Assembly: GCA_963665325.3 (NCBI GenBank)
Contig: OZ224045.1
Location: 1,376,001-1,440,000 of the forward strand
DNA: 64,000 bases
Source: Alphaproteobacteria bacterium
Lineage (GTDB): Bacteria > Pseudomonadota > Alphaproteobacteria > Bin95
Direction of reading: 5' to 3'
The position numbers and the translations under genes were made by a program. The notes beneath the pieces are model-generated. The model saw only the letters and a program-made list of their open reading frames with translations, ran no database searches and was not told the origin of the DNA. Numbering within the stretch: position 1 is the stretch's first letter; the number at the start of each line of letters is the position of its first letter. Shown piece after piece: positions 3,976 to 54,585 of this stretch.

Positions 3976-4557
3976 TGGGGATCGCGCGCTCCAGCTACTA
4001 CCGCGAGCCGCAGAGCCCGGTCGACGACACCGCCCTGGTCGAGGCAATGCACGCGATCAAACGAGTTCGAGGCCTATGGCTGGCGGCGCATGCAGGCGGA
4101 ACTTCGGCACCGGGGCTGGACCGTCAACCACAAGAAGGTCAAGCGGCTGATGCGCGAACACGCCTTGCAGCCGCCGCGCAGGCGCCGCTTTGTCGCCACG
4201 ACGGACAGCGACCACGACGAGCCGATCTTCCCGGACCGGTCCGGGGACTGCGAGGTCGAGGGCCCGAACCGGCTCTGGGTCGCCGACCTGACCTACATCG
4301 CCATCCTCGGCGGCTTCGTCTATCTGGCCGCGATCATGGATGCCTGGTCGCGCCGCATTGTCGGCTATGCGCTCGGCGAACGGATCGATGCCAGGCTCAC
4401 GCTCGCGGCGCTGGACAAGGCGATCGGCAACCGCAACCCGCCGCGCGGCTGCATCCACCACTCCGACAGGGGCTCGCAATACGCCGCTCACGCCTACCGG
4501 ACACGGCTCGACAGGCACGGGCTGAAAGGCTCGATGGGACGACGCGCCAACCCCTAC

Positions 4558-6627
4558 CCCAAGTTTAACAGAGCATTTTGAAGATCATTGATTATCAATG
4601 CCTTACGGAGCAATAATTTCGCGTCTGGCACTACATTTCGGTTATTTCGCCCGGTTCGGGATCAGACGATCATTTTCCTGATGCCTCCAGGGGCGGGGTC
4701 GATGCCGAGCGCGCGATAGATTTCTTGCTGTTCGGGCTCGGCCCGTGTGGCCTTGCGGACATGCAAGGTGCGTCCGTCCTTGCGCCTGAAGGTCGCGGTG
4801 ACCCGCTGCTGGCCTTCGAGGATGGCTCGCAGGCTGGCCCAGCTGGCGTGTTCGCCGTGCTCGGCGAGGCGCCGGCGGATGGTCTGCACCATCTGGTAGG
4901 CGATCACGGTGATGAACAGGTGGCCGTCGGAGCGCCTCTGGGTCTGGTGGAAGATGGGGCGCAGGCCGAGTTCCGACTTGAGCGATCGGAACACCGCCTC
5001 CACATCGGTGAGCGAGGTATAGGTCCGCCACAGCGCCTCCTCGTCCCAGTCCTCGACGTTGGTGCGCAGGCAGTAAACGCCGGGATGGGTGGCCATGGTG
5101 CCGGCGAGCGGGCGGCGCTCCCATGTGACGGCCCGGGCCTTCTCGCCGCTTTCGTCGGCGATGACGTCGATGTCGTAGTGGGCCGCGGCGCCGCGGCTCT
5201 TCTCCCTGATCCGGCCGATCCGCTGCCAGACATGGTCGAGCCGCTTGCGGGTGCGCGGCCGCTTGAGGCCGTCGTGGAGCTTCTGCATCTCGCCCTCGAA
5301 GCGCGCGGCGAAGCGGTTTGCGATGCCCTGTTCCTTCTTCGCCCGCGCCTCGGAGTAGCAGTAGAGCCGCGCCTCTCCAGCTTCGGCGTCGACCGCCTTG
5401 TGGACATGGACCGTCTGGCGCGACCGGGTCTCGATGGCCAGCGCCAGCTCGGGATCGAAGCGGCGGGTGCGTTCCCGGCTGACCGCGAGATAGCGGTAGC
5501 CGTTCGCGCGCAGCCAGGCGATGTTGGCCTCGGTGGCGATCCCCGCATCCATCACCACCAGCGCGTCCGCCGGCGCGCCCAGGGCGCCGAGCATCGACGC
5601 CAGGGTCCTGTCTTCGTTGACCGCGCCCGAGAACACCTCGGAGCGGCGCACGAAGCCCGAGCCGTCGAGCACCAGCCCCAGGGTCAAGAGCGGGCAATCC
5701 GAGCGCTTCTCCTTGGAATGGCCGCGTTCGGCCTTGGCCTGGGCCGCCGCCGCGCCCTCGAAGAAGGTGTTGGTCAGGTCGTACAGCGTCACCGTGTGGC
5801 GCAGGCCGAACAGATCCGTCGCCCGATCGAACAGATGCGCCTCGATCGCCGCGCGCTGCGCCATCAGGGCGTCGGAGGCGCGGTACAGGCGCATCATGCT
5901 CATGCGCTCGAAGTCCACCCCCAGCAACTCGCCGAGCGCCGAACGCTCGCACAGCCAGCGCCAGGAGGCGCGCTCCGAGCCCGGCGCCGCCATGCGCGCG
6001 ATCACGGTGGCCATGGCGAGCGCGCGCTGCGTGCCGTTGAAGCCCAGGCGCTCCAGCAAAGCCTCCAGGCCGAGCCGCTCCATGGCCCACAGCCCGACAT
6101 GCTCGACGCCGACCGAACGCGGGCGGATCAGCTCCAGGGAGCCGACATCCACCGTCTGCAGGTCAGGGCGCCCGGTCCCGCCGGACGGCGCGCTGTTGAG
6201 CAATTGCGCGGCGATGCGCTGGGCGTGCCGCTCGACCTCCTCCGGACAGGACAGCGAAACCAGCTCGGCCTGGCGGTCGAGCTGCTGCTGGATCCGGCTG
6301 CACAGCACCGCCCAGTGCCGCCGCTCGACAGGGAAGTCGCTCCCCAGGTTGAGCAGGGTGCGCTGGCGGATCTTCCCGCCGTCGCGCTCCGAGCGAACAA
6401 GGCGATGGGAATAATAGACCTCGCCGCGCTCGCCGGTTCCGGTCCTGGTGCGGCGAATGAACATGGCGCACAGCATAGGAGCGGGCGCAAGGTCTCGAAA
6501 TCCCCAAGTGAAAATATTATGGCACTACATTGCGCCCCCGGAAACCTCAATCCAGCAATATCAATGGCTTGATGACACCGCGCCGGCCAACCTCGACAAA
6601 ATCGGCCACCAAAACGTTAAACTTGGG
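4558..6627 (-). mobile_element. IS1634-family element, copy 1
   Basis: TIRs CCCAAGTTTAAC and GTTAAACTTGGG; 4-bp TSD CTAC; appears identical to 24508-26577. Confidence 0.92.
4662..6476 (-). CDS. IS1634-family DDE transposase
   Basis: LYDLTNTFFEG, GHSKEKRSD, VVMDAGI, VEAVFRSLKSELGLRPIFH motifs. Confidence 0.92.
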   Translation of the reverse strand: MLCAMFIRRTRTGTGERGEVYYSHRLVRSERDGGKIRQRTLLNLGSDFPVERRHWAVLCSRIQQQLDRQAELVSLSCPEEVERHAQRIAAQLLNSAPSGGTGRPDLQTVDVGSLELIRPRSVGVEHVGLWAMERLGLEALLERLGFNGTQRALAMATVIARMAAPGSERASWRWLCERSALGELLGVDFERMSMMRLYRASDALMAQRAAIEAHLFDRATDLFGLRHTVTLYDLTNTFFEGAAAAQAKAERGHSKEKRSDCPLLTLGLVLDGSGFVRRSEVFSGAVNEDRTLASMLGALGAPADALVVMDAGIATEANIAWLRANGYRYLAVSRERTRRFDPELALAIETRSRQTVHVHKAVDAEAGEARLYCYSEARAKKEQGIANRFAARFEGEMQKLHDGLKRPRTRKRLDHVWQRIGRIREKSRGAAAHYDIDVIADESGEKARAVTWERRPLAGTMATHPGVYCLRTNVEDWDEEALWRTYTSLTDVEAVFRSLKSELGLRPIFHQTQRRSDGHLFITVIAYQMVQTIRRRLAEHGEHASWASLRAILEGQQRVTATFRRKDGRTLHVRKATRAEPEQQEIYRALGIDPAPGGIRKMIV

Positions 6628-14635: not shown

Positions 14636-17059
14636 CTAGAACCGCAATGCGGCCTGCAGGATGATTGCGTGGATGTCGTCCTGGGCGGAGCGTTCCTGCC
14701 GCGCGGCCTCCAGTCTCAACACCGCCGAGGGCCCCAGGTTTACGCGAGTGCCGAGCCGGTACACCCGCCCGTTGCCCCGACTGAGGCCGAACCTCGTGTA
14801 AGGCGTGAGCGCGCCGCGGCCGCGAAACGCCCTGAAGCCATAAGCCAACTCGAGTTCGAGGCGCCTCGCCGAGAGGTCGGATCTGCTTGAGTCCGCCTGG
14901 TGGTCCTCCCACAGCCTTTGCACGCCGCTCGCGGTCGGGCCCCAGCCCTGCGTAAGGCTTGCCCAGGGTCCGAAACCGGGCGCCTCCGGGTCGTAGCGGA
15001 ACCGAAAACCGAACCCGCGCTCCTTCGGCCGCCCGCTCCCGCGTGCTGCGAGCCAGCGCCCGAAAACTTCCGAATTCCACCCCTGCTCCACATTGCGGTA
15101 GTGCAGGCCGCCGCCGAGCTCCAAGCTGGCGCCCGCCTTGCCGTCGCCGCTGTCGTGGCGCAACCCGATCTCTCCCCACGGGGCCAGTGTGCCGACATAG
15201 GGGACGGTCTTCTCGTGATCGATCTCGGCCGCCAGCCGGAACCGCTGCAGATCTGCCGCCGCCTTGGCGAAAGTCCTGGAGGCGCTGGAGACGTCCAGAT
15301 TCGCGAGCCCAAACTCGCCCTTGACCGTCAGTGTCGTGGAGCCGCGCTCCAGCATCCGGCTGTTGACGCCGAACGCGCTCGTGGCGAGCCGGGCGTCGCC
15401 CGAATATCTGACGCCGGCGCTGTTCAACACCCGCAGCGTTCCGGTCCCGAAGCCTGCGGTTCCCCATATTTCCAGTTGGGAGGACGGCTTCAGGCCGAAA
15501 TAGGGATGCACGCCCGTCATGCGGAGGTCGTAAGTGCCGCCTATGCCATCCTCGCCTGCGATCGTGTAATCGATGTCGCTCTCGGCCCGCGAGAGGGCGA
15601 CGCCCGCAAGCATGTTGGGGCGGAGCCTGGTCTCGGCCCCGAACTGCATGTTGAAGACGTCGCCATCCCAGAGCGCCGTCCCGCCTTTGTCGCTGCCGTC
15701 CAGACGGCGGTAGTCGCTGCAGGCCCACGCTGCGAACCGCGCGTCCCTGCCGTCGCCCCCGGCCAGGGGAAGCAGGTAGGAGGCATTGCCGAACGCCTGC
15801 TTCAGGCCGAGCGTGTTGGCGCGATCCGCCCCTCGTCCGGCGAAAGCCGGCGGCAATAAGGACGCGATCGGAGGCTTCGACCAGCCGCGCGCGATGTCGG
15901 AGAACATCTGCTCGATGCGGCACCTCGCGGCGCTGAAGGCGAGCGCTCGCCCCATTTCGGGAAGTATGGTCCGGTTCGCCTGCGCCCTGCCGGGCCCTCC
16001 GTCGTTCGATATAGAAGGATCCTCGTTGTTCCCGCTGCCCTCGTTCCTGCTGCCCTCGTTCCCGTTGCCCTCGTTCCCGCTGCCCTCATTTCCGTTGCCC
16101 TCATTTCCGTTGCCCTCGTTCCCGGTGCCCTCGTTCCCGCTGCCCTCGTTCCCGCTGCCCTCGTTCCCGGTGCCCTCGTTCCCGCTGCCCTCGATTCCGC
16201 TGCCCTCGTTCCCGTTGCCCTCGTTCCCGCTGCCCTCGTTTCCGCTGCCCTCGTTCCCGCTGCCCTCGTTTCCGCTGCCCTCGTTCCCGGTGCCCTCGTT
16301 CCCGGTGCCCTCGTTTCCGTTGCCGTCCCCGAGGTTCACCGTTAGCGGTCCGGAACCGTGTACCGGGCAATTGGAGGTGTGATCCCATACTTCGTGGTCC
16401 AACGAAATTGTCGTAGCCCGGGGGCCACCGCCCTCAGCTTCCCATTCTTCATCGGTGAGCCTATAAATCCGGAAATTTTTCCAATTGGCCCAGTCCGTGT
16501 GATCGAAGGTCCTATAGAACCCCGGGAGGAAGCGCAGATCATCGTAAGTGCCGGAGACTCTCTCGCGCTGGCCAACGCCGTTTACGTGGACGAACACATG
16601 CCAATCTTCGTCTTCTATGAGTGTTCCGTCTACGGACGGCGCCTCGCTCAACCTAACGCTGTAATAGACCGATTCACCGGGTGCTACGGTCAGCGAAGTC
16701 TCGGATACCTCCACTTCTCCGTCCCAGGTCGGAAGCTGGGTATGCTGCGCAGCGGCATTGCCCGAACAGATCACCATGAGAAGCGGGACGAGAAATACCG
16801 CTAGCACAACAAGAAATTCGACCGGCAGGCGAGGCACTTTCCGGCATAATGCGAGCGTTGTGGCCGCACCGAATTTCCCAATGCTTGTGGAACTCGTCCT
16901 CCAGCGGAGCCTGTCGGTGCAGGTTGGCAAGGCCGCGCTTGCCGCACCGCCAGCTGCTCTTGGCGGTGCAGGGAATCCTTGTCCCGCTTTGCGAAGCGGG
17001 GAATCGGGGCCGGGAGTCGAGTCGAAGCCCATCATGAGTCCGAGAATACGGTTGGTCAA
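14636..17059 (-). CDS. Autotransporter beta-barrel surface protein with GNEG[STN] pentapeptide linker
   Basis: C-terminal barrel (GVHPY, EIGLRHDSGDG, LELGGGL, terminal LRF); hydrophobic signal-like segment; start uncertain. Confidence 0.75.
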   Translation of the reverse strand: MTNRILGLMMGFDSTPGPDSPLRKAGQGFPAPPRAAGGAASAALPTCTDRLRWRTSSTSIGKFGAATTLALCRKVPRLPVEFLVVLAVFLVPLLMVICSGNAAAQHTQLPTWDGEVEVSETSLTVAPGESVYYSVRLSEAPSVDGTLIEDEDWHVFVHVNGVGQRERVSGTYDDLRFLPGFYRTFDHTDWANWKNFRIYRLTDEEWEAEGGGPRATTISLDHEVWDHTSNCPVHGSGPLTVNLGDGNGNEGTGNEGTGNEGSGNEGSGNEGSGNEGSGNEGNGNEGSGIEGSGNEGTGNEGSGNEGSGNEGTGNEGNGNEGNGNEGSGNEGNGNEGSRNEGSGNNEDPSISNDGGPGRAQANRTILPEMGRALAFSAARCRIEQMFSDIARGWSKPPIASLLPPAFAGRGADRANTLGLKQAFGNASYLLPLAGGDGRDARFAAWACSDYRRLDGSDKGGTALWDGDVFNMQFGAETRLRPNMLAGVALSRAESDIDYTIAGEDGIGGTYDLRMTGVHPYFGLKPSSQLEIWGTAGFGTGTLRVLNSAGVRYSGDARLATSAFGVNSRMLERGSTTLTVKGEFGLANLDVSSASRTFAKAAADLQRFRLAAEIDHEKTVPYVGTLAPWGEIGLRHDSGDGKAGASLELGGGLHYRNVEQGWNSEVFGRWLAARGSGRPKERGFGFRFRYDPEAPGFGPWASLTQGWGPTASGVQRLWEDHQADSSRSDLSARRLELELAYGFRAFRGRGALTPYTRFGLSRGNGRVYRLGTRVNLGPSAVLRLEAARQERSAQDDIHAIILQAALRF
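16034..16318 (-). repeat. 19 x 15-bp coding tandem repeat (GNEG[S/T/N])
   Basis: CCCTCGTTCCCGCTG-like units read directly from the sequence. Confidence 0.95.
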
Positions 17060-24081: not shown

Positions 24082-24507
24082 TATTAAGGATTACAAAGAT
24101 GGGTTGACGCCTCCGGGAATCGCCTCATGATGGGTGGATGCGACCGTCTCTTTTGTTCTTTCGAGCCATCAGCCTTGGGTGCAAGATTGTTGGCGTGTTC
24201 GGACTTGTTGAAGTTCGATGGAACGAAACTAAAGTGATGTTCGATGGGCACCCTATAGACCCATTTTTCATAGAAGCGGTCTGCATTTTCATGATCGTTT
24301 CTGGAGGCGCGTCTCTTTTCGGCCTTTGCTGGCAACGGGTCTCAAGATATTTTCTTACGGACAGGCAGGTGTTTGGAGGATTATACAAAGAAATAGTTGA
24401 TCGGCGTAATGAATTAGCCTTGCTTCTTGATGATGGTCCCAAGATAGGAGTTTCGTTTCTTTATATGTCGAAACTCATCGAACTCGAAGATTGTCTTGAC
24501 AGGTTAG

Positions 24508-26577
24508 CCCAAGTTTAACAGAGCATTTTGAAGATCATTGATTATCAATGCCTTACGGAGCAATAATTTCGCGTCTGGCACTACATTTCGGTTATTTCGC
24601 CCGGTTCGGGATCAGACGATCATTTTCCTGATGCCTCCAGGGGCGGGGTCGATGCCGAGCGCGCGATAGATTTCTTGCTGTTCGGGCTCGGCCCGTGTGG
24701 CCTTGCGGACATGCAAGGTGCGTCCGTCCTTGCGCCTGAAGGTCGCGGTGACCCGCTGCTGGCCTTCGAGGATGGCTCGCAGGCTGGCCCAGCTGGCGTG
24801 TTCGCCGTGCTCGGCGAGGCGCCGGCGGATGGTCTGCACCATCTGGTAGGCGATCACGGTGATGAACAGGTGGCCGTCGGAGCGCCTCTGGGTCTGGTGG
24901 AAGATGGGGCGCAGGCCGAGTTCCGACTTGAGCGATCGGAACACCGCCTCCACATCGGTGAGCGAGGTATAGGTCCGCCACAGCGCCTCCTCGTCCCAGT
25001 CCTCGACGTTGGTGCGCAGGCAGTAAACGCCGGGATGGGTGGCCATGGTGCCGGCGAGCGGGCGGCGCTCCCATGTGACGGCCCGGGCCTTCTCGCCGCT
25101 TTCGTCGGCGATGACGTCGATGTCGTAGTGGGCCGCGGCGCCGCGGCTCTTCTCCCTGATCCGGCCGATCCGCTGCCAGACATGGTCGAGCCGCTTGCGG
25201 GTGCGCGGCCGCTTGAGGCCGTCGTGGAGCTTCTGCATCTCGCCCTCGAAGCGCGCGGCGAAGCGGTTTGCGATGCCCTGTTCCTTCTTCGCCCGCGCCT
25301 CGGAGTAGCAGTAGAGCCGCGCCTCTCCAGCTTCGGCGTCGACCGCCTTGTGGACATGGACCGTCTGGCGCGACCGGGTCTCGATGGCCAGCGCCAGCTC
25401 GGGATCGAAGCGGCGGGTGCGTTCCCGGCTGACCGCGAGATAGCGGTAGCCGTTCGCGCGCAGCCAGGCGATGTTGGCCTCGGTGGCGATCCCCGCATCC
25501 ATCACCACCAGCGCGTCCGCCGGCGCGCCCAGGGCGCCGAGCATCGACGCCAGGGTCCTGTCTTCGTTGACCGCGCCCGAGAACACCTCGGAGCGGCGCA
25601 CGAAGCCCGAGCCGTCGAGCACCAGCCCCAGGGTCAAGAGCGGGCAATCCGAGCGCTTCTCCTTGGAATGGCCGCGTTCGGCCTTGGCCTGGGCCGCCGC
25701 CGCGCCCTCGAAGAAGGTGTTGGTCAGGTCGTACAGCGTCACCGTGTGGCGCAGGCCGAACAGATCCGTCGCCCGATCGAACAGATGCGCCTCGATCGCC
25801 GCGCGCTGCGCCATCAGGGCGTCGGAGGCGCGGTACAGGCGCATCATGCTCATGCGCTCGAAGTCCACCCCCAGCAACTCGCCGAGCGCCGAACGCTCGC
25901 ACAGCCAGCGCCAGGAGGCGCGCTCCGAGCCCGGCGCCGCCATGCGCGCGATCACGGTGGCCATGGCGAGCGCGCGCTGCGTGCCGTTGAAGCCCAGGCG
26001 CTCCAGCAAAGCCTCCAGGCCGAGCCGCTCCATGGCCCACAGCCCGACATGCTCGACGCCGACCGAACGCGGGCGGATCAGCTCCAGGGAGCCGACATCC
26101 ACCGTCTGCAGGTCAGGGCGCCCGGTCCCGCCGGACGGCGCGCTGTTGAGCAATTGCGCGGCGATGCGCTGGGCGTGCCGCTCGACCTCCTCCGGACAGG
26201 ACAGCGAAACCAGCTCGGCCTGGCGGTCGAGCTGCTGCTGGATCCGGCTGCACAGCACCGCCCAGTGCCGCCGCTCGACAGGGAAGTCGCTCCCCAGGTT
26301 GAGCAGGGTGCGCTGGCGGATCTTCCCGCCGTCGCGCTCCGAGCGAACAAGGCGATGGGAATAATAGACCTCGCCGCGCTCGCCGGTTCCGGTCCTGGTG
26401 CGGCGAATGAACATGGCGCACAGCATAGGAGCGGGCGCAAGGTCTCGAAATCCCCAAGTGAAAATATTATGGCACTACATTGCGCCCCCGGAAACCTCAA
26501 TCCAGCAATATCAATGGCTTGATGACACCGCGCCGGCCAACCTCGACAAAATCGGCCACCAAAACGTTAAACTTGGG
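24508..26577 (-). mobile_element. IS1634-family element, copy 2
   Basis: Same TIRs as copy 1; 4-bp TSD TTAG. Confidence 0.92.
24612..26426 (-). CDS. IS1634-family DDE transposase
   Basis: Protein identical to 4662-6476. Confidence 0.92.
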   Translation of the reverse strand: MLCAMFIRRTRTGTGERGEVYYSHRLVRSERDGGKIRQRTLLNLGSDFPVERRHWAVLCSRIQQQLDRQAELVSLSCPEEVERHAQRIAAQLLNSAPSGGTGRPDLQTVDVGSLELIRPRSVGVEHVGLWAMERLGLEALLERLGFNGTQRALAMATVIARMAAPGSERASWRWLCERSALGELLGVDFERMSMMRLYRASDALMAQRAAIEAHLFDRATDLFGLRHTVTLYDLTNTFFEGAAAAQAKAERGHSKEKRSDCPLLTLGLVLDGSGFVRRSEVFSGAVNEDRTLASMLGALGAPADALVVMDAGIATEANIAWLRANGYRYLAVSRERTRRFDPELALAIETRSRQTVHVHKAVDAEAGEARLYCYSEARAKKEQGIANRFAARFEGEMQKLHDGLKRPRTRKRLDHVWQRIGRIREKSRGAAAHYDIDVIADESGEKARAVTWERRPLAGTMATHPGVYCLRTNVEDWDEEALWRTYTSLTDVEAVFRSLKSELGLRPIFHQTQRRSDGHLFITVIAYQMVQTIRRRLAEHGEHASWASLRAILEGQQRVTATFRRKDGRTLHVRKATRAEPEQQEIYRALGIDPAPGGIRKMIV

Positions 26578-26734: not shown

Positions 26735-26938
26735 ATGAAGCCGATGCTTGATCCGGCCCGAGATTTGGCAGGTGCAACGCCGGAGGCGCTGGCGAAGGCC
26801 CTGTTCCGCCGCACGGAGCCGTTACGACCGGGCTCCCGGCGAAAGCGAAAGCCCGTTGTCAGCGATGAGGTCGCATTGGAGAAGACGCCTGCCGATGAGC
26901 CCGGCGACGGTATCCCGCATTTGGCCAAAAGTGTTTGA
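26735..26938 (+). CDS. Small hypothetical ORF convergent with and overlapping the IS1595 transposase 3' end
   Basis: MKPMLDPARDLAGATPEALAKALFRR; overlaps the passenger ORF end. Confidence 0.35.
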   Translation: MKPMLDPARDLAGATPEALAKALFRRTEPLRPGSRRKRKPVVSDEVALEKTPADEPGDGIPHLAKSV

Positions 26939-27799
26939 GTCGCGGATGTGGTGCTTGCTCGCAAACTCGTGGACGTACCGCTGCAGGTGCTTCGGGCTGA
27001 TCTTGTGGAAGGTCCCCTAGAGAGCCCGCTTCAACATGCTCCAGAAGCTCTCCATGCCGTTGCTGTGGACCATGCCGTCCACATACTCGCCAACGCGATG
27101 ATTGACCGCGTCATGGTCGAAATCCGCATCCAGTCCGACATAGCTGCGGTGCTCGTCCGTATAAACGGTAGCGCCGGGCTCGACATGCTCGCGCACGAAA
27201 CCCTGCAAGGTCGGCTTGGTCGTATCGGTTATGACTTCCGCCCGGACTTCGTTGCTATCGCGATCCTTCGCGCCGATAACTGCCGTCATATGGGCCGTGC
27301 CACCGCCCGCGAGCGTCTTGCGCTTTGCCTTTGGCATGTTCGCTTGGCGACCGCCGAAATAGGACTCGTCCACTTCGACCGGACCGTCAAACTGGTCGTC
27401 GTCAATCGCCCATGCCTCCCGGATGCGGTGCAGCATGAACCATGCGGTCGGCTGCGAAACTCCGATGTCGCGTTGCAGCTTCATCGAGGAAACTGACTTG
27501 AGCGAAGTCAGGCAAAGGTAGATGGCGATTGCCCACTTGCGGAGCGGGACTTTCGACGCCTGCATGGCGGTCCCGGTCTTCACCGAGAAGTAGGATCGGC
27601 AGTCCGAACACCAGTAGGGCATTCTCTTGTGGCTTGCTTTCCCGGTACGGAGACTCCCGCACTTCGGGCAATGCCGGCCGTCCGGCCAAATCACGCTCTC
27701 GAACCAAGCTGTCGCGGCGGCTTCATCGGGGAACATGTCCATGAGCTGCACCAGCGTCATGCCTTCGCGGTGTGCTTTGCCTGGGTCTTTCTTGGTCAT
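26822..27799 (-). pseudogene. IS1595-family transposase with in-frame TAG at 27017-27019
   Basis: CPKCG...CSDC Zn ribbon, VEVDESYFGG, YTDE, HSNGMESFWSMLKRAL*GTFHKISPKHLQRYVHEF continuing in frame to TAA at 26822. Confidence 0.85.
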
Positions 27800-41121: not shown

Positions 41122-41742
41122 TTGGGCTGATTGGGTCTTACACGCGCATTCTTTCCGTCGCGGATACGGCGGAAGGTCGCGGCCGGGAGGGGAAGGGCGG
41201 CCAGCGCTTTCGCGGTCTGCCGTATCGAACGGGAAACTGCTAGAGAATCGGTAAGGCCGACGGGAAGGCCGTTTGAGGTGGAAGTCGTGCCCTGTTCTTA
41301 CTTCCTGTGCAGCTACAGGTGCAAGAGGGTATTTGCCGACGGATCCAAAGCGCGGGATGGCTCTCACGCCGACACCAGATCATCGCCAGAAACCCGGCTG
41401 GAGGAGGGTCGAGGTCCATGACGGCCGGATCGGTTTGGAACGGCACTGTCCCTGGATGTTGGAGGCTCGTCGCCTTCTGCCGCGCGGCGGATTGCGCGGA
41501 AAAGGGCGGCGAACTCGTCTCGTTCATTCTCCGCCGTCTGGAGCGCTGGCACGGCTCGGTGGACCCGGCCTGGTACCGGTATGCCGGCTTGCCCGCCGGC
41601 ACGCCGTGCCATCGTACCGCCCGGGTGCCGTCCGACGCCGGCAGGGGCTGTTCCCGGCAGCGCTGATTCTCCTTTGCGGCACAGACAACCGGCGCCGATG
41701 TCAGGCAGGCCGAGCCGTTCTGGGAGATGGGATCGTTATGTA

Positions 41743-42125
41743 GCCCGCATTTCTCACCAGGGTCGTGGTCTGCGCGGCGCTGTCGGGTCGGCAGGGTAGG
41801 AGAGACGCGCAGCGCATCGTGCGCCAACGCGCGTGGGCGCGCGGCGCGGGGCATCGGGCAAGCGGCTCGGCGCACCCTGCCGGCCCGACAGCGCCGCCCT
41901 TCGGGTCGCGCCCAGGCGCCCGCCCGCGGCGGCGTAAACGCCGCCATTCATACAGTCCGCCGCGTTGCGCACGGCGGCGTAAACGCCGCCATCCAAACAA
42001 ACTGCCGCGTTGCGCGCGGCGTCGCGGGCCTCAACCGTAGGCTGTGCTACGCTTTTCGGCCCGCTCCTTGCGGAGCGAACGCCTGGACAGCGACGCAGGC
42101 CGTGACCCTGGCGAGAAATGTGGGC
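41743..42125. mobile_element. MITE-like element, copy 1 (TA-flanked)
   Basis: TIRs GCCCGCATTTCTCACCAGGGTC and GACCCTGGCGAGAAATGTGGGC; highly similar to 51101-51439; has an internal duplication. Confidence 0.85.
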
Positions 42126-43573
42126 TAGCGCGCAGGGATCGGGCGCTCGCGGCGAAGCGCCTTGCCTGGCCGGGCGCCGGTCAGGCCTCCGTTTGCCCAG
42201 ACCGGCTCACCCGCCACCAGCACCGTATGGATGCCGTCCGCCGGCGCGAGCGGGTTCTCGAAGTCGGCCCGGTCGATCACGGTCTCGGGGTCGAACAGGC
42301 AGAGGTCCGCCACTGTGCCCGCCTCGACAGTGCCGCGCCCGTCGAGCCCGAACCGGTCCGCCGGCAGGCCCGTCATGCGGTGCACGGCTTCTTCGAGCGG
42401 CATCAGGCCGAGTTCGCGGCTGTAGTGCCCCAGCACGCGCGGGAAGGTGCCCCAGAGGCGCGGATGGGGGCGCGGGTCGTGCGGAATGCCGTCGGAGCCG
42501 ATCATGGCGCGCGGGAAGCGCAGCACGCGCTGCACATCGTCCTCCGACATGGCGAAATAGATCGCCCCGGCCGGTAACAGCCTGAACGCCATCTCCTCGT
42601 CGGAGACGCCGTGCTCGGCTGCGATGTCCGAGAGGTCCCGGCCCGCGGCCTCGGGGTGGGGCTCCGACCATGTAATCAGGACGCGCTTCGAATCCGCAAG
42701 GCGATCGGGCAGGAGGACGGTCGAACTCATGGCGTAGGGATAGACGTCGAGCGATACCTGCTGCTCTGCCGCTGCGGCCTCGACCAAGGGCAGGGAGCGG
42801 GCGGTCTTGCCGTGATGGGCGGCGCCCGACGCCTTGTGGTGCGAGAGCACGACCGCGACGCCCGCGCGCCGGCCGATCTCCAGCGATTCCTCGACCGACT
42901 CCTCAAGGAACGCCCCTTCGTCGCGCATATGGGTGGCGTAGAGACCGCCAAAGGGCGCCGCCGCCTCCGCAAGCGCGACCACCTCGTCGGTCGGCGCGGC
43001 CTTGGAAGGCGGATAGAAAAGCCCGGTCGAGAAGCCGACCGCGCCTGCCTGCATCGCCTGTTCGACGCCCGCGCGCATCCGCGCGATCTCGCTCGCGTTC
43101 GCCGGACCGTTGAGATCCTCCACATGCTGCACCCGCAGCGTCTGGTGGCCGACCAGGAAGAGGCCGTTGACCACCGGCGGCCGCGCGTCCAGCGCCTCCA
43201 GATAGGAGCCGAAGGTCGGGAACCGGTAATCGCTCTCGCCGCCGAGCAGGTTCATCGGCGCCGGCGGGTTGCCGCTCGGCGTGAAGGGCGCCAGCGAGAT
43301 GCCGCAATTGCCCGCGACCACGGTCGTCACACCCTGGCTCGCCTTGGCGGCCATGTCGCCGTCCAGCAGCGCGCGGTCGTCATGGGTGTGGACGTCGATG
43401 AAACCGGGCGCGACGACGAGGCCGCGCGCGTCGATCTCCCGTTCCCCCGCCACTTCGCCCAGCGCGCCGACCTCAGTAATGCGACCGCTGTCCACGGCCA
43501 CATCGGCCTTGCGCGCCGGCCCGCCTCCACCGTCGATGACGGTTCCGCCCCGGATTACCAGATCGTGGCGCAT
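42125..43573 (-). CDS. D-aminoacylase / amidohydrolase-3 family protein
   Basis: PGFIDVHTHDD, GNCG, HMRDE, GSDG, HPRLWGTFPR. Confidence 0.9.
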   Translation of the reverse strand: MRHDLVIRGGTVIDGGGGPARKADVAVDSGRITEVGALGEVAGEREIDARGLVVAPGFIDVHTHDDRALLDGDMAAKASQGVTTVVAGNCGISLAPFTPSGNPPAPMNLLGGESDYRFPTFGSYLEALDARPPVVNGLFLVGHQTLRVQHVEDLNGPANASEIARMRAGVEQAMQAGAVGFSTGLFYPPSKAAPTDEVVALAEAAAPFGGLYATHMRDEGAFLEESVEESLEIGRRAGVAVVLSHHKASGAAHHGKTARSLPLVEAAAAEQQVSLDVYPYAMSSTVLLPDRLADSKRVLITWSEPHPEAAGRDLSDIAAEHGVSDEEMAFRLLPAGAIYFAMSEDDVQRVLRFPRAMIGSDGIPHDPRPHPRLWGTFPRVLGHYSRELGLMPLEEAVHRMTGLPADRFGLDGRGTVEAGTVADLCLFDPETVIDRADFENPLAPADGIHTVLVAGEPVWANGGLTGARPGKALRRERPIPAR

Positions 43574-46348: not shown

Positions 46349-48664
46349 ATGTTGCACATGATGGAAAATGCGTTCCTCGGAAGCCCCGTTCGCGAAGCGG
46401 CGAAGCTGGCTTTCGCCAATGTCTCCCGGCGGCGGTTCCTGCAGGGCTCGGCGGCCGGTTTCGCCGTCGCCGCCTTCGCCACCACGGCCGAGGGTTTCGC
46501 GCGCTACAAGACCGGCGGCGATGCAATGCCGAACGGCCTGCGCTACGACCCGCACATCTTCGTCTCCATCGACGCCGACGGGACGGTGACCATCGTCGCC
46601 CACCGCTCGGAGATGGGCACCGGCTCGCGCACCTCGCTGCCGATGGTGCTTGCCGACGAGATGGGCGCCGACTGGGGCATGGTGAAGATCGTCCAGGCGG
46701 AAGGCGACGAGGAGAAATACGGCAATCAGGACACGGACGGGTCGCGCTCCATGCGCCACCACATCCAGTCCATGCGCCAGATGGGCGCGTCGGTGCGCCA
46801 TATGCTCGCCAATGCCGCGGCCGAAATGTGGGGCGTGGACGCCTCGGCGGTCTCGGTCGGCGTGCATGAGGTGACGGGCGGGGGCAGGAAAGCCGGATTC
46901 GGCGAACTTGCCGAGGCTGCGATGAAGCAGCCTGTGCCCGAATTCGAGGCGCTGTCCTTCAAGGACGAGTCCGAGTTCCGCTATATCGGCAAGGGCAATA
47001 TCGGCATCACCGACCTGCACGACATCACGACCGGCAAGGCCGTTTTCGGCGCCGATGTGATGTTGCCGGGAATGAAGGTGGCAGCCGTCGCGCGCCCGCC
47101 GGTGGTCGGCGCCGAGGCGAAGAGCTACGACGCAAGCGCGGCCATGGCCGTTCCGGGCGTCGAGCATGTCGTGCCGCTTCCGGCCTCGATCATGCCGGCG
47201 AAGTTCGCCCCGCTCGGCGGCGTCGCCGTCGTTGCCTCCAACACGGATGCGGCGATCAAGGGCCGCGACGCGCTGGAGATCCAGTGGGGCGACAGCCCGC
47301 ATGGCGGCTATACCTCCGAGTCCTACCTGGAGGAGATGCGGGCGACGGCGAAGCAGCCGGGGCAGGTGTTCCGCGCCGAGGGCGACGCTGCGGCGGCGTT
47401 CGCGGGCGCGGCGAAGACCTTCGCGCAGGAATACAGCCAGGCCCATATGGCGCACGCGATGATGGAGCCGCCGGTGGCGGTCGCCAATGTCGCGGACGGC
47501 AAGTGCGAGATCTGGGCGCCGGTGCAATCGCCCTTCGGCGCGCGCGGCGATGTCGCGGCGGCGCTGGAGATGGAAGTCGCCGACGTCAGGGTGAATGTGA
47601 CCCTGCTCGGCGGCGGTTTCGGCCGCAAGTCCAAGTGCGACTTCGTCATCGAGGCCGCCATGCTCAGCAAGAAGCTCGGCATGCCGGTCAAGGTGCAGTG
47701 GACGCGCGAGGACGATATCCGGCACAGCTTCTACCACACCGCCTCGGTGGAGCGGATCGAGGTTGCGCTGGACGGCGACAACAAGGTCACCGGCTGGCGG
47801 CACAACTCGGTGGCGCCGTCGATCCTGTCCACCTTCGCGCCGGACAGCGGGCACCAGTTCTTCATCGAGAGCGGGATGGGGCATGTCGATATCCCCTTCG
47901 AAATCCCGAACCTTTCGGTGGAGAACGGCAAGGCGATGGCGCACACGCGCATCGGCTGGTTCCGTTCGGTCTCGAACATCCCGCGCGCCTGGGCGGTGCA
48001 GTCCTTCGCGTCGGAACTCGCGGCCGAGCTCGGCCGGGACGATCTCGAGGTCATGCTGGAGCTGATCGGCTCCGACCGGAAGCTCGACCCGCCGAAGCAG
48101 GGCTTCCCGGAGAACTTCTGGGACTATGGTGAGGTCTATGACGAGTACCCGATCGACACCATGCGCCTGAAGAACGTCCTCAGGCTGGCTGCCGAAAAGG
48201 GCGGCTGGGGCAAGCAGATGCCCGCAGGCGAGGGCCTCGGACTGGCGGTGCACCGCTCGTTCGTCACCTATGTGGCGACCTGCGCGCATGTGAAGATCGT
48301 GGACGGCAGGATCACCGTTCCCGAGATTCACATGGCGTTGGATTGCGGCTTCGCGGCCAATCCGGAGCGGATTCGCAGCCAGATGGAAGGATCAGCTGTC
48401 CAGGGCATGACCATCGCCCTCTACAGCGGCGTCACCTTCGAGAACGGCGCGGCGGTGCAGTCGAACTACCACGACTACCAGATGGTGCGTTCGGACAACT
48501 TCCCCGAGAAGGTCCACACGCACATCGTGCCGCATCCCTTCTCGGTCCATGCCTCGGGCGTGGGCGAGCCGGGTGTGCCGCCGGTCGCGCCGGCGATCGC
48601 CAATGCGATCTTCCACGCGACGGGCAAGCGCATGCGCGACCTGCCCATGGGCGACACCGTCTGA
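46349..48664 (+). CDS. IorB-like molybdopterin oxidoreductase subunit (Tat signal)
   Basis: SRRRFL, SEMGTG, LGGGFGRK, GVGEPGVPPVAPA. Confidence 0.88.
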   Translation: MLHMMENAFLGSPVREAAKLAFANVSRRRFLQGSAAGFAVAAFATTAEGFARYKTGGDAMPNGLRYDPHIFVSIDADGTVTIVAHRSEMGTGSRTSLPMVLADEMGADWGMVKIVQAEGDEEKYGNQDTDGSRSMRHHIQSMRQMGASVRHMLANAAAEMWGVDASAVSVGVHEVTGGGRKAGFGELAEAAMKQPVPEFEALSFKDESEFRYIGKGNIGITDLHDITTGKAVFGADVMLPGMKVAAVARPPVVGAEAKSYDASAAMAVPGVEHVVPLPASIMPAKFAPLGGVAVVASNTDAAIKGRDALEIQWGDSPHGGYTSESYLEEMRATAKQPGQVFRAEGDAAAAFAGAAKTFAQEYSQAHMAHAMMEPPVAVANVADGKCEIWAPVQSPFGARGDVAAALEMEVADVRVNVTLLGGGFGRKSKCDFVIEAAMLSKKLGMPVKVQWTREDDIRHSFYHTASVERIEVALDGDNKVTGWRHNSVAPSILSTFAPDSGHQFFIESGMGHVDIPFEIPNLSVENGKAMAHTRIGWFRSVSNIPRAWAVQSFASELAAELGRDDLEVMLELIGSDRKLDPPKQGFPENFWDYGEVYDEYPIDTMRLKNVLRLAAEKGGWGKQMPAGEGLGLAVHRSFVTYVATCAHVKIVDGRITVPEIHMALDCGFAANPERIRSQMEGSAVQGMTIALYSGVTFENGAAVQSNYHDYQMVRSDNFPEKVHTHIVPHPFSVHASGVGEPGVPPVAPAIANAIFHATGKRMRDLPMGDTV

Positions 48665-48684
48665 TCCGCCTCCGGGCGGACAGG

Positions 48685-48725
48685 CAAAGGAAAGGGCCGG
48701 CCCCCGCGCCGGCCCTTTTTCTTTG
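48685..48725. terminator. Probably bidirectional intrinsic terminator
   Basis: AAAGGAAAGGGCCGGC-loop-GCCGGCCCTTTTTCTTT. Confidence 0.75.
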
Positions 48726-49102
48726 GGTGGGGCGACGAGGTGGTCTATGTGGACGAGGGATTACGCGGAAGGGCTAGAACAGAGTTTGCGGTTGAGGCCA
48801 CAAACACGAGGATTGGTACTAGGAGCGAGATAGCACCGGGGCCCAGTCTATAGCGTTGGACGACTTCAAAGCAGATTGCCGGTACCAACTCTTCGGTCTC
48901 TTCAAGCGACGTCGGAAGGCAGGCTCCCAGCATTGTGCAAAGAAATTTTTTGCACCGATGTGCGACGGAATTCGTATTCCAGCCCAATGACAGGACTGCC
49001 AGCCGCGAAAATGACTATTGCTATGATGCCATAGCGGTTCGAGGCGTACAGGAGAAGCAGCAAAAACGCCATACCTGTTTCACAACTCACTGAAAACAGG
49101 CC

Positions 49103-49151
49103 ATGCTTGCCAAGCCGGGACAATCCGTTTGCGTCCTGACTCAGCAAGCAT
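49103..49151 (-). other. Long RNA hairpin immediately 3' of the atypical tRNA
   Basis: ATGCTTGCTGAGTCAGGAC...GTCCCGGCTTGGCAAGCAT, about 19 bp; several pairs are G-U only on the minus strand. Confidence 0.6.
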
Positions 49152-49159
49152 TAGAGTGT

Positions 49160-49247
49160 TGGTGCCCCCGGCGGGATTCGAACCCGCAAGACCAGAGCAG
49201 TCAACCGGTTCCAAACCGGATGCGTTTACCAATTTCGCCACAGGGGC
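49160..49247 (-). tRNA. Atypical type II tRNA: tRNA-Leu-like body with UGG (Pro) anticodon
   Basis: GCCCCTG TG GCG AAATTGGTAAA CGC A TCCGG TT[TGG]AA CCGGT TGACTGCTCTGGTCTT GCGGG TTCGAAT CCCGC CGGGGGC A CCA. Confidence 0.85.
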
Positions 49248-49307
49248 AGGCCCCGCCCCGTTCCGCTTCCAGCTGGTCCGGGGCGAGCGATAGGCATCCT
49301 CCGCCTA

Positions 49308-49856
49308 CTAGCGGTCGGTGCGTTCATTCAGGGTGGCGGCATTCTCGCGGTCTTCCTGTTTGGGGTTCGAGTCGGAGAGCTTGTCTTGAGAGGTCTGGCT
49401 CTCCGACTCCTCGAAAAGTGCTATGGCATCCGGAAGCGGTTTATCGACGAACCACCAAGCGTGGCGTCCATGCCATTTGACTGACTGAAAGCCACAGCCG
49501 CGCTTTGATAAGACGCTTGACAGGTTGACAGCGGGTTTTTCTCCGCCGACGCGAGCGCCAAATTGCGGCATGATTTCAATCAGTTCATGCACGGATAGGG
49601 GATAACCCTTCGCACCAAGGGCCATTCTCGCGCCTTCGAGCATCGTGACCTTCTTGGGCACAATATCTTGTGAAGTGGAAGTGAGTGCATTACTTGGCGT
49701 TGTGTCGTGCCGGAGTCCTAGGAGATCAGTGCGGGCTCTTCGAAGAATCGAAAGCTCACGGTAAAGCGGGCTTTCAGCGAGCTCCGCCTCAAGCTCCTTC
49801 ATCCTTCGCTCAATGGCTGCGAGTGTGTCATTCATAGGGACCACCATCTTTGGCAC
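49308..49856 (-). CDS. Coiled-coil + winged-helix (HARE-HTH-like) hypothetical protein
   Basis: IERRMKELEAELAE coiled coil; LEGARMALGAKGYPLSVHELIE...GGEKPAVNLSSVLSK wHTH-like pattern; start may be ATG 49835. Confidence 0.65.
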   Translation of the reverse strand: MPKMVVPMNDTLAAIERRMKELEAELAESPLYRELSILRRARTDLLGLRHDTTPSNALTSTSQDIVPKKVTMLEGARMALGAKGYPLSVHELIEIMPQFGARVGGEKPAVNLSSVLSKRGCGFQSVKWHGRHAWWFVDKPLPDAIALFEESESQTSQDKLSDSNPKQEDRENAATLNERTDR

Positions 49857-49867
49857 TTGAATGGCAT

Positions 49868-49896
49868 ATTATCGGCATCAACAATGGTCGTGTCAA
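49868..49896 (-). promoter_or_regulatory. sigma70 promoter TTGACA-N17-GATAAT
   Basis: Near-consensus hexamers with a 17-nt spacer, just upstream of the wHTH ORF and tRNA. Confidence 0.65.
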
Positions 49897-50111
49897 TGGG
49901 GAGTGAAGACCAATGGCAAGATTTTTCATTGTCGACAGAAGGTTGCGGAGAAGCCACCCTACACACGCTATGTGACGCGAGAAATGTGAAAATCTGTACC
50001 TTGCAGGCCGGGTCAAAGCAGAATTTCCGCCAACGCTCGGGCCTATGACAGCGGCACGCCCCGGTTTACACTGCTCACCCGGCGCGTCCGGGAAAGGAAG
50101 CCTTCCGAGCC

Positions 50112-51101
50112 ATGGCCCTCGATGCAATTCCGGCGATCGATCTCGGACCCTGGCGGTCCGGCAGTGCCGCCGGCAGGCGGGAGGTGGCCGAGCGGGTTGC
50201 CTGGGCGTGCGAGAATATCGGCTTCCTGATCGTCAGCGGTCATGGCATTCCCCAGGAGGTGATCGACCGCGCCTTTTCGGTCTCGCGGACGTTCTTCGAC
50301 CTGCCGCCCGGGGAAAAGTCGCGCTTCATGCCGGAAGACGGCGTGGCGCCGCGCGGCTACCACGCCGTCGCGACGCGCAATCTGGCGCGCACGCTGGGGC
50401 AGGAGACGCCGCCTGACCTCCGGGAGCAGTTCTTCATCGGCCCGCTTGTCCCGCCCGCGGACCGGTTCGCCCATATTCCGGGCGCGCCCCTGTTCTATTC
50501 CGGCAATATCTGGCCGGCGCATCCCGTCGCCTACCGGGAAGCCCTGACGGAGTTCTACTGCGCGTTCGAAGCCCTGGCCGAGCGCCTGATGGGGATTTTC
50601 GCGGTGGCGCTCGGGCTGCCGGAGGACTTCTTCGACGACAAGATCGACGAGCATTTCAGCACCTGCCCGTCGAACCACTATCCCGTCATCGAGGACGACC
50701 CGCAGCCGGGCCAGCTCCGCTGCGGGGCGCATACCGATTTCGGCAGCCTGACGATCCTCGCCTTCAACGACGCGCCGGGCGGCCTGCAGGCGCTGATGCC
50801 GGACGGCTCCTGGCTCGACGTGCGGCCGGGGCCGGGGCAGTTGGCGGTCAATCTGGGCGACATGATGCAGCGCTGGACCAACGACCGCTGGAAATCCACC
50901 GTCCACCGCGTCGTCAACCCGCCGGAGGAGCGGCGGACGGAAAGCCGGCGCCAGACCATCGGCTATTTCCTGCACCCGAATTACGACGCCGAGATCGCCT
51001 GCCTGGATAGCTGTTGCGGCGCTGGCAACCCGGCGAAATACCCGCCGATCATGGCCGGCGACCACATGCGCGAGAAAATGGAACGCCGGATCGACGGATA
51101 G
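50112..51101 (+). CDS. 2OG-Fe(II) oxygenase (isopenicillin N synthase-like)
   Basis: GAHTDFGSLTIL, VNLGDMMQRWTND, STVHRV. Confidence 0.9.
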   Translation: MALDAIPAIDLGPWRSGSAAGRREVAERVAWACENIGFLIVSGHGIPQEVIDRAFSVSRTFFDLPPGEKSRFMPEDGVAPRGYHAVATRNLARTLGQETPPDLREQFFIGPLVPPADRFAHIPGAPLFYSGNIWPAHPVAYREALTEFYCAFEALAERLMGIFAVALGLPEDFFDDKIDEHFSTCPSNHYPVIEDDPQPGQLRCGAHTDFGSLTILAFNDAPGGLQALMPDGSWLDVRPGPGQLAVNLGDMMQRWTNDRWKSTVHRVVNPPEERRTESRRQTIGYFLHPNYDAEIACLDSCCGAGNPAKYPPIMAGDHMREKMERRIDG

Positions 51102-51439
51102 CCCGCATTTCTCACCAGGGTCATGGTCTGCGCGGTGCTGTCGGGCCGGCAGGGTAGGAGAGACGCGCAGCGCATCGTGCGTTGACGCGCGTGGGCGCAC
51201 GGAGCGGGGCATCGGGCAAGCGGATCGACGCACCCTGCCGGCCCGACAGCGCCGCCCTTCGGGTCGCGTCCAGGCGTCCGCCCGCGGCGGCGTAAACGCC
51301 GCCATCCAAACAAACTGCCGCGTTGCGCGCGGCGTCGCGGGCCTCAACCGTAGACTGTGCTACGCTCTTCGGCCCAACTCCTTGCGGAGCGAACGCCTGG
51401 ACAGCGACGCAGGCTGTGACCCTGGTGAGAAATGCGGGC
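51101..51439. mobile_element. MITE-like element, copy 2 (TA-flanked)
   Basis: TIRs GCCCGCATTTCTCACCAGGGTCA and TGACCCTGGTGAGAAATGCGGGC. Confidence 0.85.
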
Positions 51440-51459
51440 TAGGCGGAGGCGAGGCGGAC

Positions 51460-54383: not shown

Positions 54384-54458
54384 TGGCTCCGCGGGTAGGA
54401 TTCGAACCTACGACCAATCGGTTAACAGCCGACCGCTCTACCACTGAGCTACCGCGGA
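54384..54458 (-). tRNA. tRNA-Asn(GTT)
   Basis: Canonical cloverleaf, anticodon loop CTGTTAA, encoded CCA. Confidence 0.96.
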
Positions 54459-54511
54459 ACAGACCCGAACGGGCGCCCTTATAGCGGCCCTTTGCGAGCT
54501 TGGCGAGGGCC

Positions 54512-54585
54512 TGGAGGCGCGGACCGGATTCGAACCGGTGTAAGCGGATTTGCAGTCCGATGGATAGCCACTCTCCCACCGCGCC
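54512..54585 (-). tRNA. tRNA-Cys(GCA)
   Basis: Cloverleaf, anticodon loop CTGCAAA, U73, encoded CCA. Confidence 0.95.

Follow-up and report, generated by a model that had tools for sequence, protein, structure and literature searches.

To our knowledge, few natural code-breaking transfer RNAs (tRNAs) have been described: tRNA-ProX, the allo-tRNAs, the nev-tRNAs and the yeast CUG tRNAs. The bacterial hybrids of tRNA body and anticodon listed in PMC11415595 are tRNA-ProX with its synthetase ProRSx, hybrids of tRNA-Sec and tRNA-Cys, and the allo-tRNAs. tRNA-ProX, which occurs in Streptomyces and Kitasatospora, places alanine, asparagine or threonine anticodons on a proline-type body, has A33 and A34, and is encoded beside a synthetase paralogue (PMC11415595). 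Allo-tRNAs have serine identity, a D arm like that of tRNA-Sec, an 8/4 or 9/3 acceptor/T branch, a long variable arm and a non-cognate anticodon, and insert the amino acid of their body; according to PMC5389517 they are rare, occur in phages and soil bacteria close to toxin-antitoxin genes and transposon-related genes, and serine-charged examples killed E. coli on induction. Nematode nev-tRNAs are class-II, leucine-charged tRNAs with glycine or isoleucine anticodons (PMC3333845, PMC4300185); they are eukaryotic chromosomal genes without a linked regulator or mobile-element context. Here we analyse a 64,000-nt window of an Alphaproteobacteria bacterium (assembly GCA_963665325.3, contig OZ224045.1, positions 1,376,001 to 1,440,000), in which an islet of low guanine-plus-cytosine (GC) content encodes, on the minus strand, a small winged-helix protein followed by a class-II tRNA (Table 1; positions are those of the window, and L and G numbers are our labels for loci and genomes). 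Leucine identity elements and a proline anticodon are combined in this mobile, recurrent tRNA.

The tRNA gene scores 59.8 bits with the Rfam tRNA model (threshold 29) and is called by ARAGORN as an 88-nt tRNA-Pro(tgg). The acceptor (7/7), D (3/3) and T (5/5) stems are fully paired and the anticodon stem has 4/5 pairs, giving 19/20 overall; the D stem of 3 bp, a leucine-type D loop, a 14-nt variable arm and A37 complete the structure. A tRNA-Arg called by ARAGORN on the plus strand was rejected as a mirror artefact (25.1 bits against a threshold of 47 there). Eight long ARAGORN calls elsewhere in the genome were rejected as false positives, as they lack tRNA features. Identity is highest with the leucine tRNAs of the host (55–69%), followed by its serine and tyrosine tRNAs (51–55%) and its proline tRNAs (40–51%). 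The leucine-like body with UGG anticodon noted in an earlier, sequence-only reading of this DNA is confirmed. Identity elements were taken from the review PMC9976931, where the bacterial leucine set is given as A73, A15:U48, G18G19 and the T-loop contacts, with C2-G71 as an antideterminant for seryl-tRNA synthetase, and the bacterial proline set as G72, G15:C48, G35, G36, G37, G49 and A73. The islet tRNA has all of the leucine elements, C2-G71 included; from the proline set it has A73, G35, G36 and G49 and lacks G72, G15:C48 and G37. As bacterial tRNA-Leu anticodons are NAG or NAA, the UGG anticodon means that it is no leucine isoacceptor by decoding, and the absence of C1-G72, G15:C48, G37 and a short variable loop separates it from bacterial tRNA-Pro. 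Elsewhere the host genome holds leucine tRNAs with anticodons GAG, TAG, TAA, CAA and CAG and three proline tRNAs (TGG, CGG and GGG), which are canonical, 77 nt long and C1-G72 paired. A single prolyl-tRNA synthetase (ProRS) gene lies far from the islet (contig C1:132752-134047), and no second one was found in the genome.

Like tRNA-ProX, the islet tRNA and its relatives represent a natural body/anticodon mismatch in bacteria with a dedicated protein gene alongside. The arrangement is reversed, however, with a leucine-type body, a proline anticodon, U33 (C in 3 of 17 members) and, instead of an adjacent ProRS paralogue, a winged-helix protein and/or a transposase as partner. A canonical 7/5 branch, the 3-bp D stem, A73, C2-G71 and the leucine set distinguish the family from allo-tRNAs. 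The nev-tRNAs likewise place a foreign anticodon on a leucine body, glycine being among their targets. Canonical bacterial tRNA-Leu shares A73, A15:U48, G18G19 and a long variable arm with the family, and in one member (L022) the D arm matches three host leucine tRNAs exactly over positions 7–26; the family differs in having UGG, GGG or GCC in place of NAG or NAA, a variable arm of 14–32 nt and a location in mobile DNA. The full-text literature searched, with subscription journals and supplements outside it, yielded no bacterial leucine-body tRNA with a proline anticodon and no module of a HARE helix-turn-helix (HARE-HTH) protein and a tRNA. This agrees with the earlier statement that no system with this layout has been described, other kinds of natural miscoding tRNA being known.

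Relatives of the tRNA were found both beside homologues of the islet open reading frame (ORF) and independently of it. The closest ORF relative, on the contig of L013 in a metagenome-assembled genome labelled Alphaproteobacteria (G002), precedes a 101-nt class-II tRNA whose anticodon is GCC, and a class-II UGG tRNA stands just downstream of the ORF in three of four metagenome loci that carry it. One further UGG tRNA, in G191, came from searching 401 genomes of the class by pattern; the loose pattern matched 79 of the 401 by chance, and among the 11 matches with T at the free position, which were inspected, one was a tRNA. With a stricter pattern the only hit among 37 genomes of the order, and again among 401 of a phylum sample, was the window's own genome. 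In a viral collection the UGG pattern matched 13 loci, 12 of which fold as 7/3/5/5 class-II cloverleaves (L077 and L078 are identical in sequence); nine loci are confirmed by Rfam at gathering score and three more by ARAGORN. The 12 folded members share A73, G1-C72 and U48, none of which was part of the search pattern. In an alignment (A5) of the six members that were found without recourse to a tRNA pattern, 98.3% of the stem cells pair and 10 of 20 pairs have changed on both sides; none of 500 shuffles reached the observed pairing values, and sliding the partners against each other reduced pairing to 36–48%. The compensatory changes and the shuffle test therefore indicate selection on the tRNA fold, and the odd tRNA is thus a member of a recurrent family under selection. 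A15:U48, G18G19 and the T-loop residues U54, U55, C56 and A58 are invariant in this alignment. Across the family, A73, G1-C72, A15, G18G19 and U48 occur in 17/17 members and C2-G71 in 15/17, G72 and G15:C48 in none and G37 in 4/17, while the anticodon is UGG or, rarely, GGG or GCC.

As controls, the viral contigs were scanned with other anticodons attached to this D-arm pattern. The leucine anticodon UAG gave at least 119 loci, CGG gave none, UCG gave one locus that is not a tRNA, and UUG gave ten, of which four are ordinary class-I tRNA-Gln genes and six are not tRNAs. One good class-II tRNA was obtained among six GGG loci; the five GCC loci include one that is intact and three with a broken 3' acceptor. 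The leucine-type body thus bears foreign anticodons for proline and glycine only. The two intact cases, L218:6870-6990 (GGG, proline) and L220:2939-3040 (GCC, glycine), are class-II leucine-type tRNAs with A73 on viral contigs; in the GCC copies L219, L222 and L223 it is the 3' acceptor strand that is broken. Some of the contigs classed as viral carry transposases or an integrase and may be prophage borders or chromosomal DNA. At L070:2685-4949 the tRNA adjoins a tyrosine integrase, and some copies may lie at, or serve as, phage attachment sites. The copy at L075:774-882 has a 41-nt insert after the anticodon region that forms a long hairpin and could represent an intron or an alternative fold, and the thirteenth viral locus, L073:9363-9440, contains only the 5' half of a tRNA. 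ARAGORN misses the members with variable arms of 27–32 nt (L013, L064, L076, L079 and L082), which the Rfam tRNA model finds; routine annotation would thus miss long-arm members or, as ARAGORN did here, label shorter ones tRNA-Pro.

The protein encoded upstream of the tRNA had been described in the sequence-only reading as a 182-aa coiled-coil/winged-helix protein, with structure prediction suggested as a check. A frame of that length exists (49308–49856) and may start at the GTG at 49856; the start residue of the relatives aligns with the ATG at 49835, favouring the shorter product in Table 1. The predicted fold agrees with the earlier description. The AlphaFold model (mean pLDDT 82.6, with 10-residue blocks at 95–98 across residues 61–140) comprises a helical hairpin (residues 2–44), a linker, a winged helix-turn-helix (65–129) and a low-confidence tail; the homodimer prediction scored 0.30 against a mark of 0.42. 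HARE-HTH (PF05066) is matched by 12 of 26 family members at E<=0.1 (best E 1.7e-5), and a fold search lists the RNA polymerase delta subunit (8x6g_E) at Z 7.4 alongside numerous winged helices of a generic kind. When 1.84 billion representatives were searched with a profile, 269 relatives were obtained at E<=1e-3 and 69 at E<=1e-10, and among the 150 relatives listed nearly all are small (about 130–260 aa). The ORF family is present in 4/401 class genomes, the window's own included, and the window ORF is open and keeps every invariant residue of the family. A word-based protein search returned the window's own protein alone, tblastn against plasmids and phages gave no match, and the ESM Atlas gave only clusters named hypothetical protein; a viral profile scan with alignment A3 gave a single, distant match, a phage protein (L023) whose surroundings hold no tRNA. 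The relatives P0003–P0005 and the L064 ORF have short C-terminal tails rich in alanine and threonine (...LTA, ...ALA), which we take to resemble protease degradation tags; the window protein has no such tail.

The sequence-only reading had proposed an autoregulated module of protein and tRNA and had named homologues lacking a linked tRNA as evidence that would count against it. The homologues mostly bear the linkage out: a same-strand tRNA follows the ORF, 60–140 nt past its stop codon, in 4/5 of the relatives closest to the window protein and in 5/11 ORF-family loci (window, L013, L020, L021 and L022), but the remaining 6/11 (L019, L015, L018, L016, L017 and L023) have none, and ORF and tRNA are unpaired in 13/13 viral loci. 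All linked tRNAs join a class-II leucine-type body to an anticodon that is not a leucine one, namely UGG at four loci and GCC at the fifth. At L064 the ORF upstream of the tRNA has no significant similarity to the family by hhalign, and its 3' end and spacer match the islet DNA at 76%. In two replicons of G191, a 1947-bp unit with a distant ORF relative and an IS1-like transposase occurs twice at 99.95% identity (L015 and L018), so that the ORF family also travels with another type of insertion sequence (IS), without the tRNA.

The promoter identified in the sequence-only reading stands and is the sole promoter-like site on the minus strand within 48500–50200; the scan gave two sites in 1.7 kb, compared with 0.7 ± 0.8 in shuffled sequence. 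This absence of a second promoter suggests that ORF and tRNA are co-transcribed. The GGCA repeats reported over the promoter are also present, read as TGCC on the minus strand at 49877-74, 49866-63 and 49855-52. Three such tetramers are weak evidence alone, and a TTGCCATTG-like box is the better supported repeat. An exact TTGCCATTG occurs once in the window (49911-49919, minus strand), and three degenerate copies surround the promoter; with up to two mismatches, four copies fall within 73 nt (49859-49931), against one per approximately 390 nt window-wide. The box lies upstream of the ORF in 5/6 loci (window, L013, L019, L021 and L022) and overlaps the -35 hexamer in L021 and L022, a conserved position that is compatible with autoregulation by the ORF protein.

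We tentatively favour a reading in which the islet is a mobile operon for a leucine-charged, proline-decoding tRNA whose dose is set by a co-transcribed repressor, and regard it as a serious possibility that falls a little short of probable. A consensus promoter overlapped by TTGCCATTG-type boxes would drive a transcript comprising the small coiled-coil/winged-helix (HARE-like) protein, the hairpin spacer, the tRNA and the terminator hairpins. Co-transcription with the autorepressor would limit the dose of the tRNA, which RNase P would free from the mRNA. Leucyl-tRNA synthetase (LeuRS), which ignores the anticodon, would charge the tRNA with leucine, and the charged tRNA would read CCN codons as leucine, acting as an encoded Pro-to-Leu mistranslator. 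Such miscoding might serve to make the host dependent on the element, to diversify the proteome under stress or to act in conflict with phages. A conflict or addiction module of a new type, a mobile and regulated weapon with a sense-codon-miscoding tRNA as its effector, could be imagined in which a labile winged-helix repressor restrains the leucine-charged proline-decoding (in some copies glycine-decoding) tRNA, its loss through phage attack or loss of the element releases a flood of Pro-to-Leu errors, and IS1595 transposons and phages spread the module; we consider this version unlikely. The toxin-antitoxin or abortive-infection role suggested in the sequence-only reading found nothing in its support in searches with PADLOC, PHROGs and NCBIfam: the latter two gave no match for the window protein, and PADLOC gave only a sub-threshold Csx1 match (E 0.0027), RNA-toxin systems lying outside such libraries.

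Several observations weigh against a repressor-controlled mistranslator. The window tRNA has a U27-U43 mismatch, and three family members (L022, L072 and L082) have C33 in place of the near-universal U33, which may weaken decoding; other natural miscoding tRNAs have A33 or G33 (PMC11415595). In the 12 viral members the search pattern itself had fixed the D arm and the anticodon. The ORF family is absent from the 13 viral tRNA loci (hmmsearch, E<=1), and L019 has the ORF without a tRNA. The window protein itself falls below the cut-off for PF05066 (E 0.065–0.072; 13.9–14.1 bits against a gathering score of 25.9), and fold searches match it to generic winged-helix DNA binders (best Foldseek E 0.034, top VIA-align Z 8.4). 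Carriage of the tRNA on viral contigs that lack the ORF, in one case within a phage tRNA cluster, is hard to reconcile with a simply toxic product, and G35, G36 and A73 are also ProRS determinants, making some prolylation possible by the host ProRS, which is of the bacterial type without an editing insert.

The last two points would fit a faithful if odd tRNA that ProRS (or, for the GCC members, glycyl-tRNA synthetase, GlyRS) charges by way of the anticodon, a spare decoder of abundant CCN and GGC codons carried on mobile elements and phages whose foreign body perhaps escapes nucleases directed at tRNA-Pro. In the host, CCG makes up 3.57% of codons and GGC, the most frequent codon, 6.48%; this abundance of the targeted codons also speaks for the favoured reading. 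The GCC member at L013 carries the GlyRS determinants C35, C36, G1-C72, C2-G71 and G3-C70, and the anticodons of the family are limited to proline and glycine, two systems in which positions 35–36 are read. We nevertheless judge faithful decoding unlikely, given that C72 and A15:U48 are kept in 17/17 members where ProRS prefers G72 and G15:C48, and that the one-pair change that would correct this is never seen. The complete LeuRS set is retained, the GCC members have A73 where bacterial tRNA-Gly has U73, and the host already possesses three proline tRNAs.

Both hairpin features reported in the sequence-only reading were recovered by folding. The spacer between ORF and tRNA forms two hairpins (-33.5 kcal/mol, z -2.65), and the hairpin of about 19 bp 3' of the tRNA (49103-49151) does favour the minus-strand RNA, with 19 pairs, -27.5 kcal/mol and z -4.0, against 16 pairs, -21.6 kcal/mol and z -2.65 for the plus-strand RNA. 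The second spacer hairpin holds a box (CGCCCCRGACCAGC...GCGGAAYGGGGCG) that is also found in L013 and L064; it was rejected as a general repeat, the whole box occurring once in the 5.58-Mb genome.

An association of the tRNA with IS1595-family transposases (PF12762 and PF12760) was missed in the sequence-only reading and is new in the present analysis. Such genes lie approximately 0.06–1.6 kb from the tRNA, in either orientation, at six loci (L022, L064, L072, L074, L076 and L082, the last with a split gene). IS1595-family insertion sequences carry passenger genes; we know of no tRNA among them, and our literature search on tRNA passengers in this family found nothing relevant. These six loci resemble IS1595-family elements in having a DDE_Tnp_IS1595 and zinc-ribbon transposase beside the tRNA. 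No ends of an element could be defined, and no terminal repeats bounding an IS were found in L064 or L022. The idea that the linked transposases require Pro-to-Leu recoding was rejected, with 0–1 Pro-for-Leu positions in 10 pairwise comparisons. In the window, the segment 48841–49093 on the plus strand is probably a transposase relic. It matches the L064 transposase gene by blastn (72% over 82 nt, E 2e-5 and 2.8e-7), tblastn gives two colinear segments in different frames (residues 245–262 and 262–297, E 0.002 and 0.003 with a 701-nt subject), and blastn against the genome's own copy on contig C4 gives 81% over 32 nt; counting against this identity, Pfam gave no match for the segment, and a larger subject set gave none at E<=0.05. 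The earlier remark that no integrase is present thus holds for integrases, none of which is found in the ORF list of the islet, but overlooked this likely transposase fragment. A full-length IS1595-family transposase, 36–38% identical to those of L064 and L022 and belonging to a set of roughly five whole or partial copies in the genome, is encoded elsewhere in the window (about 26882–27736, minus strand) and ends approximately 300 bp from the second copy of a 2-kb repeat.

The spacer and the transposases raise the possibility that the tRNA is not used in decoding at all, and is either a cis-acting element for RNA processing or regulation, where an RNase P cut at its 5' end would give the ORF mRNA a hairpin-protected 3' end, or a landmark or target for IS1595-type transposons. 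The region directly 5' of the tRNA is strongly structured in all loci (two to three hairpins, z -2.1 to -7), as the former would predict, and the proximity of transposases in either orientation is in line with the latter. Processing, however, requires the acceptor and T arms alone, which leaves the retained anticodon, A73, leucine-type D loop and anticodon stem unexplained, and at L070, L071 and L079–L081 the tRNA stands without an ORF or a transposase. A role outside decoding is therefore rather unlikely in our estimation.

The islet, in the reading that we favour, would have been gained by horizontal transfer, as a fragment of a mobile unit associated with IS1595 that is no longer able to move. 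Its GC content is 0.475–0.58 over 48700–50099, compared with 0.63–0.735 in both flanks, in agreement with the lower-GC segment noted earlier; the extent then given (48685–49896) is corrected by the empty-site comparison to approximately 48727 to 50033. The islet is present at this locus in 1/17 genomes of the genus and absent from the other 16. The flanks abut in alignments of G008, G007, G005 and G012, and by coordinates only in G011 and G015; in G016 a different 270-bp filler stands between them. No target-site duplication or terminal inverted repeats were found at the islet ends. With no integrase, the tRNA inside the insert and an empty site without a tRNA, the islet is not a tRNA-targeted genomic island. 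A 1457-nt contig from run X1 covers 48653–50109 with no differences, and a 1831-nt contig from run X3, a separate study, has two differences, both beyond the islet; with contigs from two studies identical across it, assembly error is excluded. Low-depth joints at 48724>50051 (X1) and 48725>50053 (X4) carry mismatches, and a paralogous copy of the left flank lacks the right flank; the joints are therefore taken to come from a related organism with an empty site and were rejected as excision products. The paralogous copy (G000:C1:1236202-1237226) repeats the left-flank gene's 3' end and terminator at 97% identity, without the right-flank gene, and two copies are likewise present in G011 and G008.

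The frameshifted transposase fragment, the unrecognisable element ends and the restriction to a single genome of the genus could also mean that the mobile unit has decayed and that ORF and tRNA persist here by chance, with no present function. We consider such a silent relic improbable: the ORF is open with all invariant residues, the promoter matches the consensus at 11/12 positions, the tRNA retains 19/20 stem pairs and an encoded CCA, and the islet is identical in the runs of two studies. A sequencing or assembly error, or a recent A35G mutation of the host tRNA-Leu(UAG), from which UGG differs by one base, is refuted by the agreement of independent contigs, by an identity of only 66% to host Leu(TAG), by A in place of its G at position 37 and by diverged relatives that share UGG.

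Table 1. Coordinates of the features of the islet within the 64,000-nt window.
Feature	Position	Strand	Basis
Inserted low-GC islet, about 1.31 kb	48727..50033	.	GC content and empty-site comparison
Probable IS1595-family transposase gene relic (frameshifted; C-terminal part)	48841..49093	+	blastn/tblastn; convergent with the tRNA as in L064
Three hairpins 3' of the tRNA (49151-49103, 49101-49073, 49070-59 with U run)	49059..49151	-	Folding; likely terminator
Class-II tRNA, anticodon UGG, A73, CCA encoded	49160..49247	-	ARAGORN, Rfam, pair counts
Structured ORF-tRNA spacer, 60 nt; hairpins 49308-49290 and 49287-49252	49248..49307	-	Folding
175-aa protein: N-terminal helical hairpin, winged helix-turn-helix, acidic tail	49308..49835 (stop codon included)	-	AlphaFold model, HARE-HTH relatives
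Operator-like repeats: TTGCCATTG box and relatives, TGCC x3 at 11-nt spacing	49852..49931	-	Repeat counts; putative protein binding
Sigma-70-type promoter TTGACA-N17-GATAAT	49868..49896	-	11/12 consensus matches

Other parts of the window are also repetitive. A 2073-bp direct repeat (4555–6627 and 24505–26577) is present at 99.95% identity with its copies about 20 kb apart, a tandem array at 16028–16324 repeats at 90–92% identity in several registers, and a duplicate of about 400 bp (41741–42136 and 51099–51449; 92–95% identity) has its second copy just beyond the gene to the right of the islet. The minus strand at 54384–54585, 5 kb from the islet, carries ordinary genes for tRNA-Asn(GTT) and tRNA-Cys(GCA).

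If the favoured reading is correct, these tRNAs would constitute a new miscoding-tRNA family of Proteobacteria-like genomes and phage-like DNA, in which an anticodon-blind LeuRS is exploited to place leucine at proline, and in some members glycine, codons. Proline and glycine residues are structurally critical, and their codons are abundant in high-GC hosts. The family travels with a putative regulator and with transposases, and bears on the manipulation of translation by mobile elements. Prolylation of the tRNA would instead make it the first known class-II tRNA-Pro, an outcome likewise unexpected. The islet is real and unusual, and may serve as a natural means of misreading the genetic code.

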